This document shows, in pieces, positions 4,360 through 25,676 of a stretch of DNA of 64,000 nt. This DNA is from Escherichia virus TH57. The stretch lies in the sequence record MT446422.1. One strand, given 5' to 3'. The notes under the pieces were generated by a model. The model made no database searches. It was not told where the DNA came from and was given only the letters and a program-made list of their open reading frames with translations. Each line of letters begins with the position of its first letter. Positions within the stretch are counted from its first letter, which is position 1. The translations under genes and the position numbers were made by a program.

Positions 4360-4390
4360 TATCCCATCAACTACTGATGAGGAAAACAAA

Positions 4391-21946: not shown

Positions 21947-21958
21947 AATATTTTAAAA

Positions 21959-21978
21959 GGGGCTTACAGCCCCTTTTT
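21959..21978 (+). terminator. rho-independent terminator after gene 41
   Basis: GGGGC ttaca GCCCC followed by TTTTT. Confidence 0.55.
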
Positions 21979-21980
21979 CT

Positions 21981-21991
21981 TATGTTATAAT
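21981..21991 (+). promoter_or_regulatory. -10 element (TATAAT) with conserved leader upstream of ORF 22018
   Basis: TTATAATGACCCTATCAACTACTGGAGAATAAAATG, same leader family as the other cassettes. Confidence 0.4.
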
Positions 21992-22017
21992 GACCCTATC
22001 AACTACTGGAGAATAAA

Positions 22018-22335
22018 ATGAAAACTATTGATTGCAAAGCGGAATACAAAGTTTATTATCATGGCTCAAGCTCTAATGCTGGAATCCAAAATATGCTTTG
22101 CCCTCCTGATGCAACTGGTGTTCTGTCAGAAGTTGGGCGCAAGAAAAATTTAGGGCGTGTGTTTTTTACTGAAGATATTGGTTTGGCCCGTATCTATGCA
22201 GGAAGAGCAGCTCGCTCGTATGGAGGAGAACCCCGTCTTTATCGTGTGATTGCACCTGTTGACGTGGTTTGTTTAAATGATACTAAAGGTGCTACAGTTT
22301 ATCACGCTGACTGGGCCTTCTGTGAGGAAATCTAA
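22018..22335 (+). CDS. hypothetical protein (105 aa) with possible ADP-ribosyltransferase-like signature
   Basis: YHGSSS ... GRVFFTEDIGLARIYA ... CEE pattern is reminiscent of H-Y-E type ART cores; speculative. Confidence 0.45.
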   Translation: MKTIDCKAEYKVYYHGSSSNAGIQNMLCPPDATGVLSEVGRKKNLGRVFFTEDIGLARIYAGRAARSYGGEPRLYRVIAPVDVVCLNDTKGATVYHADWAFCEEI

Positions 22336-22338
22336 ATG
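22323..22338 (+). repeat. 16-nt junction repeat TGAGGAAATCTAAATG (second copy at 22536-22551)
   Basis: Identical 16-mer forms C-terminus (..EEI), stop, RBS and start at two consecutive gene boundaries. Confidence 0.7.
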
Positions 22339-22548
22339 TATAAATTAGAGAACGTAGTGTTTATTGGTTGGTTTGAAAATGGTAATATGTTTACCAAAGA
22401 AACTGCACTAGATGTTAGCGACCAAAATATGATTGAATGGGTCACAGTGCAGTATGCAGAAGTGAATAATGCGCTGGTGAAAGCCTTTGTTAATGACAAT
22501 AAAGTTTTTGAATATGATTATCGTATCCACTTATCTGAGGAAATCTAA
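22336..22548 (+). CDS. hypothetical protein (70 aa), paralog of 22549-22890
   Basis: Shares NALVKAFVNDNK motif with neighbour (NALVEAFVDDK); identical TGAGGAAATCTAAATG junction at both starts. Confidence 0.4.
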   Translation: MYKLENVVFIGWFENGNMFTKETALDVSDQNMIEWVTVQYAEVNNALVKAFVNDNKVFEYDYRIHLSEEI

Positions 22549-22890
22549 ATGGCTTTTAATCCAGAAGACCGCGTAAAAGTAACAATCAAAGTGAGTGCTG
22601 TTGGTGTACCATCTTTTGAACGTTCTAGCATGTTCCACCCAGCAGGTATTCACTGGTATGTCCAGAAGACTGCTGATAACTATAATGCACTGGTTGAAGC
22701 TTTTGTTGATGACAAGCTAATTCATAAAGTAGACATGCGTAAGGGTACTGCATTGCGTAATCTGATTTTGACCGTTGAAGCTCAACTGGTAAATGAAGAA
22801 ATCTGCCTTACTGATATTGAAGCAGCTCTTCATATTGCGCGTGCTGAATATTACAACTTGACTGGTTTTTCAGTTGAAGGCGAAAAATAA
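22549..22890 (+). CDS. hypothetical protein (113 aa)
   Basis: ORF; paralogous segment to 22336-22548. Confidence 0.45.
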   Translation: MAFNPEDRVKVTIKVSAVGVPSFERSSMFHPAGIHWYVQKTADNYNALVEAFVDDKLIHKVDMRKGTALRNLILTVEAQLVNEEICLTDIEAALHIARAEYYNLTGFSVEGEK

Positions 22891-22920
22891 GTGTACAACA
22901 AAGGGATAATGCTGTATATT
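22891..22920 (+). promoter_or_regulatory. early-type promoter cassette (GTGTACA, 18 nt, TATATT) with stem-loop
   Basis: AGGGATA..TATCCCT inverted repeat brackets the -10; leader CTATCAACTACTGAGGAGA then ATG 22949. Confidence 0.5.
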
Positions 22921-22948
22921 ATCCCTATCAACTACTGAGGAGATTGAA

Positions 22949-23242
22949 ATGAAAAAGTTATTAATTGCAGCAATTCTTACCGTAGCATCATGTGGTACAG
23001 CTCCAGTTACTGCTGGGCTTGATAAAGACCTTTGTGAGTGGTCTATGACCGCTGACCAGACTGATGTTGAACATCAGATTTATGCTGATATCATGAACAT
23101 AACTAAACGTGACCGTCCTGATATGGTTAAAGAAGTGTCTGACCAACTGGCTTCTGGTGACGTTATGCAGTATAACTATGTTCTGTATTGCGATGCTTCA
23201 TTCGACAACAGCAAAATTGTTCAATGGGTTACAGGTGAATAA
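22949..23242 (+). CDS. secreted/periplasmic small protein (97 aa), spackle-like candidate
   Basis: Cleavable signal peptide (MKKLLIAAILTVASCG), two Cys; size and topology match my recollection of T4 Sp; tentative. Confidence 0.45.
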   Translation: MKKLLIAAILTVASCGTAPVTAGLDKDLCEWSMTADQTDVEHQIYADIMNITKRDRPDMVKEVSDQLASGDVMQYNYVLYCDASFDNSKIVQWVTGE

Positions 23243-23243
23243 A

Positions 23244-23681
23244 ATGATTAACAGAAATTTGGTTATCAAAAAACTTCGCTGTAAAAATCCAAATGCGCAA
23301 GCATACAGAGTGTTTTGGAGCGACGAGATTCAATATCTGGGTTATTTTCTTGTTGACAGTGATAATAGAATTACGTTTGCTCATAAGCTTCTTAACAAAG
23401 AATTAAACCATTGGCAAGAACTTATTGCAGTCAAGTCTAAATTATTTTCATGCAATGCAATGCACCAATTGGTTTATTTTTTCGCTGATGGTATTCCTGA
23501 CAAGGTTGAGTTTGAAGGGTTTGAATTTAAAGACATCAATCCAGACAATGAATTGAATAATGATGTTGTTAATATGGGTATCCCTGGTAAGTACATCAAA
23601 AACAGTCTTTTGAAAATTCTGGAAAATCCTGTTTATTCAGTTGACGACCAAATTTTTAATGCCTTTATGAAGCGAGATTAA
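23244..23681 (+). CDS. hypothetical protein (145 aa)
   Basis: Start at ATG 23244 just after upstream stop; C-terminus DDQIFNAFMKRD shared with next ORF. Confidence 0.45.
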   Translation: MINRNLVIKKLRCKNPNAQAYRVFWSDEIQYLGYFLVDSDNRITFAHKLLNKELNHWQELIAVKSKLFSCNAMHQLVYFFADGIPDKVEFEGFEFKDINPDNELNNDVVNMGIPGKYIKNSLLKILENPVYSVDDQIFNAFMKRD

Positions 23682-23685
23682 TATG
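23643..23685 (+). repeat. 43-nt gene-end/gene-start junction repeat (second copy at 24001-24043)
   Basis: 39 of 43 nt identical; both encode DDQIFNAFMKR(D/G), stop, TAATATG start. Confidence 0.7.
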
Positions 23686-24039
23686 AGTTATTATAATTTT
23701 CTGAATTTTGAACTGGCCAGCAATAATGATGGTAATGCTCGTTATGAATTTCGTGAGCCTCGGTTTAATCAGGCGATTGGTTATATTATCGTTAAAGATG
23801 ATGTTATCATAAAGGCTCGCTCATTTATGGTAATGGATGGACCTTATGAAGATACTCGTGGATACCCATTTGATAAAAAGAATGTGCGCGATTGCGCAAT
23901 CTGGATAACTGGGAACCCTGAAATTGGGGTCATGATATCTACTGAAGCGAATGACATTCTGGAAGGGGTAGCCAAAGCTCAAGAACCGCCTACTGATATT
24001 GATGACCAGATTTTTAATGCCTTCATGAAGCGAGGTTAA
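23683..24039 (+). CDS. hypothetical protein (118 aa)
   Basis: C-terminus DDQIFNAFMKRG; 3' 43 nt nearly identical to the end of the preceding gene. Confidence 0.45.
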   Translation: MSYYNFLNFELASNNDGNARYEFREPRFNQAIGYIIVKDDVIIKARSFMVMDGPYEDTRGYPFDKKNVRDCAIWITGNPEIGVMISTEANDILEGVAKAQEPPTDIDDQIFNAFMKRG

Positions 24040-24040
24040 T

Positions 24041-24262
24041 ATGTTTGTTTTGACCCAATTCTCTAAAGCAATATATAGTTACTCTTGCCAGTGGGAAGTC
24101 TTTATTGATACTCCTTCGCCTAAGTATGGTGTTTTTGGACGAGTAACTACTCAAGCTTATGTTGCACGACCGACTAAACGTCAGATTCGTAAACTTAAAA
24201 AGGCACATCGTCAATTGATTAAAAGAAGGGAACAATATGAGTGCAATGTGTACGGGCTCTAA
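24041..24262 (+). CDS. small basic protein (73 aa), paralog of ORF 433-609
   Basis: Motif ARPTKRQIRKLKKAHRQ shared with ORF 433-609. Confidence 0.4.
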   Translation: MFVLTQFSKAIYSYSCQWEVFIDTPSPKYGVFGRVTTQAYVARPTKRQIRKLKKAHRQLIKRREQYECNVYGL

Positions 24263-24428
24263 GATTTCGGTCTTCCAGATTTTTGAAGAATATGAAATCG
24301 TGTCGCAAGACCAAGAAGCAATCCATGTTATCGCTGATGATGGTGTTACCTGGATTATTCCGTTGTATCATGAAGACACTTATGAAGTGACTGATGCAAA
24401 TGGTGATAAAGCTATCTTCGTTGTATAA
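24237..24428 (+). CDS. hypothetical protein (63 aa)
   Basis: ORF overlapping the preceding gene by 26 nt. Confidence 0.3.
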   Translation: MSAMCTGSKISVFQIFEEYEIVSQDQEAIHVIADDGVTWIIPLYHEDTYEVTDANGDKAIFVV

Positions 24429-24447: not shown

Positions 24448-24615
24448 ATGAAAACATTCAAAGATTTTATAAACGAAGATATGGTTGCCGGTGATGCAGG
24501 TGGAAACCCAACTAATATCGCAACAGGTACCACTTCCGGGGCAGTTGTCAATAAAGGCCCTGAACAAATCCCATCAAAAAAGCGTAAGAACAAAGACGAT
24601 AAACCTACAGTATAA
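24448..24615 (+). CDS. candidate capsid-targeted internal protein (55 aa precursor)
   Basis: N-terminus MKTFKDFINE resembles the recalled T4 internal-protein capsid targeting sequence MKTYQEFIAE, with an I-x-E cleavage context; TATAAATA 17 nt upstream; AAAGGGGG RBS. Confidence 0.5.
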   Translation: MKTFKDFINEDMVAGDAGGNPTNIATGTTSGAVVNKGPEQIPSKKRKNKDDKPTV

Positions 24616-24647: not shown

Positions 24648-25676
24648 ATGTCATATATTGATAAAGAATTTGCGGTCAGAGCTTTATCGTATCAACCACG
24701 TTATAGAGAAGTCACCGGGAGCACATTTAAAGCAAACTGTCGTTGTAAGGTTTGCGGGGACTCCCAGAAAGATTCACATAAGGCTCGATTCTGGGCGTAT
24801 ACCAATCCGTCTGATGGTGCGGTTTACGTGAAATGTTTTAACTGTGACTACTCCACGCATATAAGCAAATACATAAAAGAGTTTGAGCCGGATTTGCACC
24901 GGGAATATATGGTTGAGAAGTACAAGGAAAATGCCTTCGGTCGACAACGTAATGAAGTTGCAGAAACTCCGAAAGAACCAGAAAAAACTCCGGTTATTGA
25001 AGAGCTTGCTTTTTGCGAAAGAATCGATACTTTACCAGAAGCACATCCGATAGTTAAGTATGTGAAAAGTCGGTGTATTCCGAGCAATGTTTGGAACCGG
25101 TTATGGTTTACAAACAAATGGCCTGCATTAGTTAACTCCGTTAATCCTGGGACGTATAAGAATGAAACGAATGAACCACGCTTGGTTATTCCTATCTTCA
25201 ACGGCAAAAAAGAAATCGAATCTTTCCAAGGACGAGCTCTTCGCAAAGATGCACCACAAAAATATATCACAATCAAAGCTCACCCAGAAGCTTCCAAAGT
25301 CTATGGCGTAGACAAGATTGATGAGCGCAAGCGCGTGTGGGTAATGGAAGGTCCGATTGATAGTTTGTTTATCCCTAACAGCATTGCGATAACCGGTGGA
25401 ACATTAGCATTGGAAGCCGTTCCTTATGCTGAAACCCGAGTATGGGTAATGGACAACGAGCCAAGACATCCGGATACGATTAAACGTATGAAGAAACTCG
25501 TTGAAGCTGGCGAAGCTGTTATGTTCTGGGACAATGCACCATGGCATACGAAAGACATAAATGAGATGGTTAAATCGGAGGGTGCAACCCCTGAACAAAT
25601 CGAATCATATATGGCCGATAACGTTGCTCAAGGGCTGATGGCGAGAATGCGACTTTCGAAGTACGCAAAAGTTTAG
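24648..25676 (+). CDS. 61: DNA primase gp61
   Basis: 342 aa; N-terminal zinc ribbon (CRCKVCGDS ... CFNC); canonical position after 41. Confidence 0.92.
   Translation: MSYIDKEFAVRALSYQPRYREVTGSTFKANCRCKVCGDSQKDSHKARFWAYTNPSDGAVYVKCFNCDYSTHISKYIKEFEPDLHREYMVEKYKENAFGRQRNEVAETPKEPEKTPVIEELAFCERIDTLPEAHPIVKYVKSRCIPSNVWNRLWFTNKWPALVNSVNPGTYKNETNEPRLVIPIFNGKKEIESFQGRALRKDAPQKYITIKAHPEASKVYGVDKIDERKRVWVMEGPIDSLFIPNSIAITGGTLALEAVPYAETRVWVMDNEPRHPDTIKRMKKLVEAGEAVMFWDNAPWHTKDINEMVKSEGATPEQIESYMADNVAQGLMARMRLSKYAKV

Follow-up and report, generated by a model that had tools for sequence, protein, structure and literature searches.

Why should consecutive genes of a phage be joined by the same sequence? 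The question is raised by a row of very small early genes in Escherichia virus TH57 (sequence record MT446422.1), of which a stretch of 64,000 nucleotides (nt), hereafter the window, was analyzed. The window is assignable to a T4-like Gaprivervirus, and its closest genomes are those of the Gapriverviruses TH15, VR20, and SP18 (~95% nt identity). The genes lie between the helicase gene 41 and the primase gene 61, a region named the anti-toxin-antitoxin (anti-TA) island, in which dmd is directed against RnlA, tifA (61.4) against ToxN, and adfA (61.2) against DarT (Srikant et al. 2022, PMC9391042). Two short repeats lie on gene boundaries of this island: J1 at A|dmd (copy J1a) and dmd|C (J1b), and J2 at E|F (J2a) and F|G (J2b), where the letters denote the genes listed in Table 1. 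The island is probably made up of small-gene cassettes that end in constant 3' linkers; unequal recombination between linkers would add, delete, or swap cassettes, and selection and gene conversion would keep the linkers alike.

The original prediction had reported one 16-mer, TGAGGAAATCTAAATG, at two consecutive gene boundaries. It is found exactly at 22323-22338 and 22536-22551 and has no further exact copy in the window; a search allowing up to two mismatches returned three sites in the window against 0.08 expected from shuffles, the third being 4378 with two mismatches. The J1 match stretches to 22 nt with two mismatches (22317-22338 against 22530-22551), and its 15-mer has no other occurrence in the 64 kb. 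The second repeat, predicted as a near-identical gene-end segment of 43 nt (23643-23685 and 24001-24043), shows four mismatches over that length, three of them synonymous and one an Asp/Gly change, and extends to 45 nt with 91% identity (23641-23685 against 23999-24043). J2 comprises the last 13 codons of the upstream gene, TAA, and TATG; the predicted peptide DDQIFNAFMKR with stop and start is present in both copies as DDQIFNAFMKR(D/G), stop, TATG. In both cases, the direct repeats are spaced by one gene unit, 213 nt for J1 and 358 nt for J2. Because tight gene junctions are all under Shine-Dalgarno (SD), stop, and start constraints, we used a stricter null, in which the 19 nt upstream of the ATG were compared among the 39 tight gene junctions of the window. 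The resulting 741 pairs share a mean of 5.9 of 19 positions (standard deviation 2.1) and the best unrelated pair shares 12, whereas the J1 pair and the J2 pair share 17 each. The likeness of the J1 and J2 copies is not generic to gene junctions, which confirms the observation on which the prediction was built.

The prediction had further proposed an alignment against related phages for presence/absence polymorphism of the cassettes, and the outcome was positive: gene gains, losses, and replacements in relatives begin or end at the linkers. About 20 related genomes were compared overall, with the window aligned against ten relatives and their gene tables; the word-index homologue searches reach close relatives only (8, 16, and 36 matches), and the IMG/VR scans yielded few loci. 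The F cassette (23686-23998) is missing in the Dhakaviruses ESCO10, KIT01, and IME08 and in contig L035, where homology ends at 23685 and resumes at 23998, inside the J2 copies. The VR7-like contig L031 also has no F, with the crossover in the last ~8 nt of J2. Gene G is missing in EAWsc9 and MN01 from 24043 (the ATG of J2b) to 24234 (the start of H). On the J1 side, homology with ESCO10, IME08, and L035 ends at 22552, just past the ATG of J1b, and a 46-amino acid (aa) zinc-ribbon-like gene stands in place of C, so that IME08 reads A-J1-dmd_a-J1-Zn. In UPEC07 and MN01, a TifA-like gene follows a J1 variant. KIT01 has the order A-J1-dmd_a-J1-dmd_b, with an extra 195-nt dmd_a+J1 unit between two J1 copies; its second unit matches J1a and dmd of the window at 94.5%, and the dmd_b block begins at 22325, within J1a. 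Four different genes therefore occupy the place after J1b in relatives (C, the TifA-like gene, the 46-aa zinc-ribbon-like gene, and a second dmd). In the conserved flanks, which comprise gene A with the sequence upstream of it and the sequence from the F tail onward, contig L031 and VR7 share 98-99% identity; they differ by the loss of F inside J2 and by the replacement of dmd, C', and a 61.4-like gene between J1 and the second promoter/stem-loop element (PeSL2, described below). All loci considered, J1 is followed by dmd, C, the 79-aa TifA-like gene, the 46-aa zinc-ribbon-like gene, a second dmd, or a 188-aa gene, and J2 is preceded by an AdfA, E, F, or F-like body and followed by F, F', G, H, or 61.1. 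The slot between sp and 61.1 of Tequatroviruses varies in the same manner: it holds no tail-bearing cassette in RB5, AdfA in T4, an F-like gene in L029, and AdfA plus an F-like gene in L033, and each of these cassettes ends in the J2 tail.

Several of these loci have further features. Contig L031 (IMG/VR UViG_2706795394, reverse strand, 693-2564) contains no dmd; its 188-aa gene, which has a lipoprotein-like signal (MKKLFIIAFALCGL...), stands directly after J1a and ends in ...NEK at the PeSL2 edge. In the window, H starts 26 nt inside the end of G (24237-24262, ATGAGTGCAATGTG...), and in EAWsc9 and MN01 the start of H is joined to the TATG of J2b, with an apparent crossover at the shared AATATG. 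RB5 (L038, 3608-3625) has no AdfA-family gene, and its sp-61.1 sequence, TTAGAGGCTAATATG, resembles the end of J2 (AGAGGTTAATATG in T4); a linker remnant may serve there as the ribosome-binding site (RBS) of 61.1. Yersinia phage phiD1 (L039, HE956711, 2363-4065) carries four tails, those of AdfA, an F-like gene, a partial F-like gene with many Ns, and another F-like gene, followed by 61.1; the unit of AdfA-type tail plus F-like gene is repeated in it at 99.5% identity. The phiD1 array may have arisen by natural tandem amplification or may reflect population heterogeneity; the alternative is a faulty assembly of this record.

J1 reads GAG GAA ATC TAA ATG and flanks dmd on both sides. Its GAGG lies 7-8 bases before the ATG, and the upstream protein is forced to end in -EEI. 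J1a is conserved as TGTGAGGAAATCTAAATG in all Gaprivervirus and Dhakavirus loci read, and gene A ends in -CEEI in every relative, RB69 included. In the Gapri-, Dhaka-, and Mosigvirus genomes read, gene A is the immediate upstream neighbor of dmd. It has no match in Pfam, PDB, or PADLOC, and by its place in the anti-TA island it is a candidate for a role in counter-defence.

The dmd gene of the window is unambiguous: it scores 72.6 bits against Pfam PF17587 (cut-off 27) over model positions 3-59 of 60, and its product is 56-67% identical to the Dmd proteins of T4 and RB69. T4 Dmd is an antitoxin that acts against the RnlA and LsoA toxins (PMC9391042). The C-terminal extension of the window protein, ...RIHLSEEI, has no counterpart in T4 and RB69 Dmd. 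According to the gene tables of the relatives read, the C-terminus of Dmd varies with what comes next. It is -EEI plus J1 where a coupled gene follows (the window, VR20, EAWsc9, UPEC07, MN01, ESCO10, IME08, L035, and phage 55), -SNEK where the sp promoter follows (SP18 and dmd_b of KIT01), and -RG in T4, RB69, and RB5. Between its conserved D-x-R and EEI, Dmd carries residues that vary by lineage (IHLS, I, K, or NKP), so either the 15-mer was joined to dmd more than once, or the joint has been remodelled.

The prediction also held that the genes joined by the 16-mer share an internal motif. They do, and it is a Dmd motif (YAEVNNALVKAFVNDNKVFEYD in one and ADNYNALVEAFVDDKLIHKVD in the other; BLASTP 42% over 31 aa). 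In gene C the match is weak and falls at aa 34-64: Pfam gives E=0.0017 and 19.1 bits against the cut-off of 27, over model positions 29-59 only; the PHROG dmd family gives 8.8e-6; and the PDB matches at E<=1 are two Dmd chains only (E=0.055 and 0.31). Gene C looks like a fusion in which a 48-aa module follows an N-terminal domain that is Dmd-like (aa ~15-64), and the genes joined by J1 can be classed as paralogues, one encoding Dmd and the other a Dmd-like domain. The 48-aa module occurs as a free-standing 50-aa open reading frame (ORF) in ESCO10 (listed at L015:3184-3336; BLASTP 65%). ESCO10 has a 46-aa CxxC...CxxC (zinc-ribbon-like) ORF where the window has the Dmd-like part of C. Gene C is rare, being present in 15 of 50,697 phage records; dmd is carried by ~797 phage records.

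J2 combines the C-terminal peptide DDQIFNAFM(K/N)R(G/D) of the AdfA family with the RBS of the next gene. AdfA (gp61.2) of T4 and RB69 ends in the same peptide, followed by GAGGTTAA(T/A)ATG and the next gene, and the motif (S/V/I)-(I/D)-DDQIFNAFM-x-(R/K)-(G/D) with an RBS for the next gene is found in E, F, T4 and RB69 AdfA, and the F-like proteins. The J2-joined genes E and F can both be placed in the set that carries the AdfA tail. Tail DNA was found at 753 places in 556 phage records, so two tail copies per genome are common. The tail peptide is kept across Tequatro-, Mosig-, Dhaka-, and Gapriverviruses, and among 23 tails from four genera variation falls mainly at third codon positions and at the residue before Arg. 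Purifying selection at the protein level leaves such a pattern, and the last codons double as Shine-Dalgarno sequence. Most of the near-identity over the 43 nt of J2 is best explained by the conserved peptide and RBS, not by recent duplication.

Beyond the tail, F and E differ in how far they can be tied to AdfA. Window F scores 20.6 bits against Pfam AdfA PF23813, below the cut-off of 27, and only its last 15 residues (aa 104-118) match. It is 47% identical over its full length to 118-119-aa F-like proteins of Tequatroviruses, which pass the Pfam AdfA cut-off with 30.4-31.1 bits over model positions 114-211. When the last 16 residues were removed, Smith-Waterman comparison with AdfA gave z=4.2-4.8 for the F-like proteins and z=3.1 for window F. 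These Tequatrovirus intermediates and tail-less scores support a view of F as a one-domain protein related to the C-terminal half of AdfA. AdfA itself may be an internal duplication, as suggested by a second, weaker match to its residues 34-72. E has no Pfam AdfA match, and its body without the tail shows no significant similarity to F or AdfA (z at most 1.7; Smith-Waterman z=0.4 for E against F). HHalign comparisons without tails gave E=0.005-0.1 (E=0.1 for the body of E, a weak match colinear to AdfA 122-184) and placed the hGYhhV-D-xI motif colinearly in the E, F, and AdfA comparisons. In AlphaFold2 models, the body of E has a predicted local distance difference test score (pLDDT) of 75-87, with a beta-sheet and helix, and its tail is below 50; the model of F is poor, with a pLDDT of 50 that is too low for a fold search. 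The predicted strand/helix order is the same in E and in this poor model of F. Foldseek with the E model matched a 118-aa viral protein (E=6e-5), and no AdfA was among the 50 BFVD matches listed. Together with these comparisons, a distant paralogy of E with F and AdfA is plausible. The last 45 residues of the E model are low-confidence helices detached from the body, which fits a peptide that folds on a partner.

The age of the repeats corrects the prediction at two points, the other being the cause of most J2 identity given above; its reading of the region as one of cassette duplication and shuffling is otherwise supported. The duplications behind Dmd/C and E/F are old, not recent, because the gene bodies are highly diverged and the E-F tandem is also present in a distant lineage, L034 (Logan SRR8048120 contig; E homologue at 560-991). 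There are signs of exchange between linker copies, which are suggestive. In the Mosigvirus phage 55, both J1 copies carry the variant TAAAATG. The F tail of VR20 is E-like (SVDDQ), so that its E and F tails differ at 2 of 42 positions. The residue at -3 is Lys in both E and F of Gapriverviruses and Asn in Dhakavirus E and AdfA. Between the window and L034, the body of E retains 22% protein identity, compared with 71-76% for sp and F, and the last 31 codons of E are 87% identical in DNA, with KYIKNSLLKILE identical at 36 of 36 nt; the body of E has either evolved fast or been replaced. Within these 31 codons the same codon is used at 21 of 26 conserved residues (81%), versus 44-64% in sp, F, and the E body. 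Tail polymorphisms of E and F point toward the state of the paralogue at 5 of 9 variant sites, which by our own estimate is not significant at synonymous sites.

These observations can be brought together as follows. Each gene would be a cassette with a short constant 3' linker that holds its last residues, the next SD sequence, and the stop and next start, spaced by 0-1 nt. Cassettes would be added, deleted, duplicated, or swapped when linker copies recombine unequally, be it in one genome or across co-infecting phages; reading frames and translational coupling would stay intact, and the products would therefore be viable. The linkers would be kept alike by selection on the RBS and, for J2, on a functional C-terminal peptide, with occasional gene conversion between copies as a further homogenizing force. 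T4-type recombination, which is known to act on short homologies, could serve such a process. We infer that the linkers are the substrates on which recombination acts and that the tail is functional in its own right.

Several points weigh against this explanation. J1 is short (15-22 nt), recombination is deduced from sequence, and the data are compatible both with repeats that cause rearrangements and with repeats that mark preserved boundaries. Not every breakpoint coincides with a linker: in SP18, UPEC07, and MN01, C is deleted or replaced from points that lie 12-18 nt upstream of J1b (22518-22524), and one boundary falls within C itself (22795). BLAST alignment ends also tend toward conserved stretches, which somewhat inflates the coincidence of breakpoints with linkers. 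The codon-identity contrast in E is modest (P ~0.01, our own estimate), and nucleotide-level constraint could also produce it. For J2, we modeled two independent encodings of an identical peptide under the codon usage of the window; E and F differ at 3 of 11 shared codons versus 5.3 expected, and the excess DNA identity beyond the peptide that was sought is not significant (P(<=3)=0.11). The E and F tails of the window differ at 5 of 42 positions, each differs from the T4 or RB69 AdfA tails of other genera at 5-6 of 42, and those of L034 differ from each other at 11 of 42. The window tails are not unusually close, so purifying selection alone could maintain J2.

This last consideration leads to an explanation by constraint only, in which the same selection acts on each junction, cassette differences between phages come from random illegitimate recombination, and only events that leave a working junction survive; the repeats would then be survivors, not substrates. 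The codon model just described favors it, as do the conservation of the tail peptide across four genera with variation at third codon positions and the L034 tails, which are only 71-74% identical in DNA. It is also in line with the four junction contexts, less structured than shuffles as for open ribosome-binding sites, and with the documented T4 amplifications, which used arbitrary 6-10-bp microhomologies (PMC9391042). Yet the J1 15-mer is not favored at other junctions and occurs with at least five downstream genes in three genera; the same 1-nt variant is found in both J1 copies of phage 55; what KIT01 has in addition between its J1 copies is exactly one dmd+J1 unit; the F tail of VR20 has undergone conversion to the E type; and synonymous differences are fewer in the constant 3' block of E than in its neighbors. 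On this balance we regard constraint only as rather unlikely, and recombination between linkers as the probable explanation. A hidden nucleic-acid element, such as a MotA-dependent middle promoter, a structured RNA, or a protein-binding site, could likewise explain conservation. The consensus of MotA-dependent promoters consists of a MotA box and a -10 element, and the T4 tail TGCTTTT-N12-TAATAT resembles this combination; in addition, codon usage predicts somewhat less uniformity across genera than is seen at synonymous sites in the tail. However, the TGCTT core is present only in T4, IME08, EAWsc9-F, and L034-F, and the others have TGCCT or TGCAT because the third position of the Ala codon varies freely. 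There is no stable RNA fold or Rfam match, a sigma-70 scan found no promoter-like site inside J1a, J2a, or J2b, and the substitution pattern is that of protein-level purifying selection, all of which make a hidden element very unlikely. We rejected a MotA-box middle promoter in the tail on the grounds of the non-conserved core, with no support in the literature searched, and a structured RNA at the junctions on the grounds of folds weaker than shuffles and no meaningful Rfam match.

Two further explanations concern the origin of the repeats themselves. A recent in-situ tandem duplication in this phage, with copies that have not yet diverged, would account for direct repeats spaced by one gene unit (213 and 358 nt) and for joined genes that belong to the same families. 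But Dmd and C are 42% identical over 31 aa only, E and F show no significant similarity once the tails are removed, the arrangement is fixed in many Gapriverviruses, and the distant lineage L034 has the E-F-G tandem as well. Because the gene bodies are so diverged, we rejected a recent duplication, which we hold to be highly improbable. Mis-assembly, which the prediction had named as its refuting case, has next to no likelihood. Nothing in the window favors it; the related phiD1 record has Ns in its four-tail array, which may point to assembly difficulties there. Against it, the same repeats stand in the same places in many independent genomes from different laboratories and countries, and both were read directly in VR20, EAWsc9, VR7, and others. 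An assembly artefact is excluded by at least nine independently deposited phage genomes that have the same arrangement and whose alignments each cover 97-100% of the region without a break.

Table 1. Features of the gene 41-61 region in the window
Feature	Position	Strand	Basis or remark
Gene 41, replicative helicase, 479 aa	20507..21946	+	gp41 in VR20, SP18, and VR7 at the homologous place; conserved left flank
PeSL-type regulatory cassette 1	21955..22017	+	Promoter/terminator scan; 23-nt repeat shared with 22915-22937
Gene A, 105 aa, phrog_2110, RB69 ORF040c homologue	22018..22335	+	Ends ...WAFCEEI
J1a linker, CTTCTGTGAGGAAATCTAAATG	22317..22338	+	A codons C-E-E-I, SD GAGG, TAA, dmd ATG
dmd (T4 gene 61.5), 70 aa	22336..22548	+	Pfam Dmd 3.3e-20; antitoxin against RnlA/LsoA by family
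J1b linker, CTTATCTGAGGAAATCTAAATG	22530..22551	+	dmd codons S-E-E-I, SD, stop, gene C ATG
Gene C, 113 aa, apparent Dmd-like fusion	22549..22890	+	Weak Dmd matches in Pfam, PHROG, and PDB
PeSL-type regulatory cassette 2	22879..22948	+	Left edge GAAAAATAA-GTGTACAAC; then sp SD and ATG
sp (spackle, T4 61.3), periplasmic lipoprotein	22949..23242	+	Pfam T4_Spackle 1.4e-43
Gene E, 145 aa, phrog_8539	23244..23681	+	Conserved C-terminal ~30 aa; ends DDQIFNAFMKRD
J2a linker	23641..23685	+	Tail codons V-DDQIFNAFMKRD, SD-like GAGA, TAA, TATG of F
Gene F, 118 aa, phrog_4122	23683..24039	+	Tail matches end of Pfam AdfA
J2b linker	23999..24043	+	Tail codons I-DDQIFNAFMKRG, SD GAGG, TAA, TATG of G
Gene G, 73 aa, TifA (T4 gp61.4, ToxN inhibitor) homologue	24041..24262	+	Pfam DUF7279 3.3e-20
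Gene H, 63 aa, RB69 ORF033c homologue	24237..24428	+	Overlaps end of G by 26 nt
Gene I, 55 aa, T4 gp61.1 homologue	24448..24615	+	Homology
Gene 61, primase	24648..25676	+	Annotations in relatives; conserved right flank

The two operons of the island start with promoter and stem-loop elements of the type called promoter-early stem-loop (PeSL), at 21955-22017 and 22879-22948, with promoters at 21963-21991 and 22892-22920 (Table 1). In the first, a terminator hairpin (21955-21977) has the -35 CTTACA in its loop and is followed by the -10 TATAAT (21986-21991), the motif CCCTATCAACTACTG in the 5' untranslated region (UTR; 21994-22008), and the SD and ATG of gene A. In the second, the -35 TGTACA is at 22892, the stem-loop (22902-22926) lies over the -10 TATATT, and the UTR motif is at 22923-22937. 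The left edge of this second element, GAAAAATAA-GTGTACAAC, sets the last codons of the preceding gene and forms the right edge of the first variable slot; ...GAAAAATAA plus the -35 edge is present after dmd of SP18 (SNEK), C of the window (GEK), and the 188-aa gene of L031 (NEK). The sigma-70 scan returned no promoter-like site inside J1a, J2a, or J2b, only a weak 9/12 match just upstream of J1b (22493-22521). All four J1 and J2 contexts are less structured than shuffles (z +0.8 to +1.7), hairpins are present only in the two intergenic elements (21955-21977 and 22902-22926), and a search of the junctions against Rfam gave no meaningful match.

The PeSL-type elements share ~80% identity across ~55 nt, a stretch that takes in the first codons of A and sp, although these two genes are unrelated. 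Their UTR motif, CCTATCAACTACTG, has six close copies on the + strand of the window, and two weaker ones, including sites at 4362, 29639, 33775, and 44344; eight sites in the window have at most three mismatches versus 0.94 expected by chance. A J1-like GAGGAAAACAAAATG comes after the copy at 4362. The SD regions of the operon-first genes A and sp (22008-22011 and 22939-22942) contain GGAG, the motif targeted by the T4 endoribonuclease RegB, and those of J1 and J2 contain GAGG or GAGA without GGAG.

Gene G scores 72.2 bits against Pfam DUF7279 (cut-off 24.5), as compared to 72.7 bits for T4 gp61.4, to which it is 39% identical by BLASTP; TifA is an inhibitor of ToxN (PMC9391042). Homologues of TifA/gp61.4 (DUF7279; window 24041-24262, L014:2387-2683, and L004:2141-2380) occupy two slots, one after dmd (T4, UPEC07, MN01, and IME08) and one after F (G of the window), and VR7 has one in each. 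PADLOC returned nothing useful for C, E, F, G, and H.

Taken together, the gene 41-61 region can be viewed as a store of toxin-antitoxin inhibitors in T-even phages, with Dmd against RnlA and LsoA, TifA against ToxN, and AdfA against DarT. Reusable cassette ends would explain how this repertoire is rearranged quickly without loss of expression, and the linkers predict where amplifications and swaps should arise under selection by a given defence system. Genes A, C, E, F, and H and the 46-aa zinc-ribbon-like gene are candidate counter-defence genes, and in phage-therapy strains of the genus, variants in copy number and content are to be expected at the locus. By-products of the analysis are F as a single-domain relative of AdfA, the Dmd-like fusion C, a second position for TifA paralogues, and the tail as a functional target; the conserved 12-residue tail would be the first to address in the function of the AdfA family. 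T4 AdfA and RB69(R164H) AdfA, which has His at RB69 position 164, bind DarT1 and rescue phage from DarTG1. A speculative and, in our view, doubtful extension is that the AdfA-type tail, which in E follows the invariant KYIKNSLLKILE-PVYS block, is a portable C-terminal adaptor helix that docks or oligomerizes variable toxin-binding bodies, with tail DNA as the constant region for body exchange and J1 in the same role for whole genes. If so, the island would contain a built-in diversification system for anti-toxin specificity, like constant/variable switching in polymorphic toxin loci.

How do these linkers compare with known systems? CDI/Rhs polymorphic toxins with orphan modules are constant-junction cassette systems, and they have in common with the linkers a short conserved coding motif between constant and variable parts that provides homology for module swaps in conflict arrays. 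In the island, by contrast, what stays constant is a tiny C-terminal part, each module is an entire small gene of a phage operon, and no dedicated recombinase or delivery machinery is involved. Two of the gene families likewise have known counterparts. Like AdfA (PF23813), E and F end in the AdfA C-terminal motif at the position of AdfA between sp and 61.1, and the F family aligns with AdfA positions ~114-211. They differ in length (145 aa for E and 118 aa for F versus 208-216 for AdfA), window F falls below the Pfam cut-off with a tail-only match, the E body lacks significant similarity, and an anti-DarT role of E and F is putative. As to Dmd (T4 gp61.5; PDB 5hy3 and 5i8j), gene B (dmd) of the window is a clear member, and the N-terminal half of C carries the Dmd C-terminal motif; however, in C (113 aa) this half is fused to an unrelated 48-aa module, the protein falls below the Pfam cut-off, and the Dmd of the window has a 7-aa linker-encoded extension that T4 Dmd does not have.

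The closest parallels come from T4-type phages themselves. T4 amplified dmd-tifA by recombination at 6-10-bp microhomologies, with a different, arbitrary one in each population (Srikant et al. 2022, PMC9391042). The locus and the gene families are the same as here, the tandem units are bounded by short direct repeats, and the process was driven by selection from host toxin-antitoxin defences. In the linkers, by contrast, the same 15-45-nt sequences recur across genera and have coding and ribosome-binding roles, and the natural copies are diverged paralogues, not identical repeats. PeSL cassettes of T4-type phages (Arbiol et al. 2010, PMC2839356; Comeau et al. 2014, PMC4122927) are the established case of cassette shuffling at short repeats in hyperplastic regions. 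J1 and J2 resemble them as short conserved direct repeats at gene boundaries in such a region; as repeats that bound ORFs differing between sister phages, here with breakpoints at 22325, 22552, 23685, 23998, and 24043 and between VR7 and L031; and in the proposed recombination between copies, which would delete, insert, or swap ORFs with expression kept. The 3' end of a PeSL also holds the SD and start codon, and the two PeSL-type elements of the window bound the operons in which the linkers lie. Unlike PeSLs, J1 and J2 have no promoter and no stem-loop, which are two defining PeSL features; they lie inside operons, are largely coding, and dictate the C-terminal residues of the upstream protein; and J2 additionally encodes a conserved, functional-looking peptide of one protein family. 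Mini-circles have been demonstrated for PeSLs. The probable shuffling at J1 and J2 extends the known modes of T4-like evolution, PeSLs and microhomology-based amplification, and is not a new kind of system.

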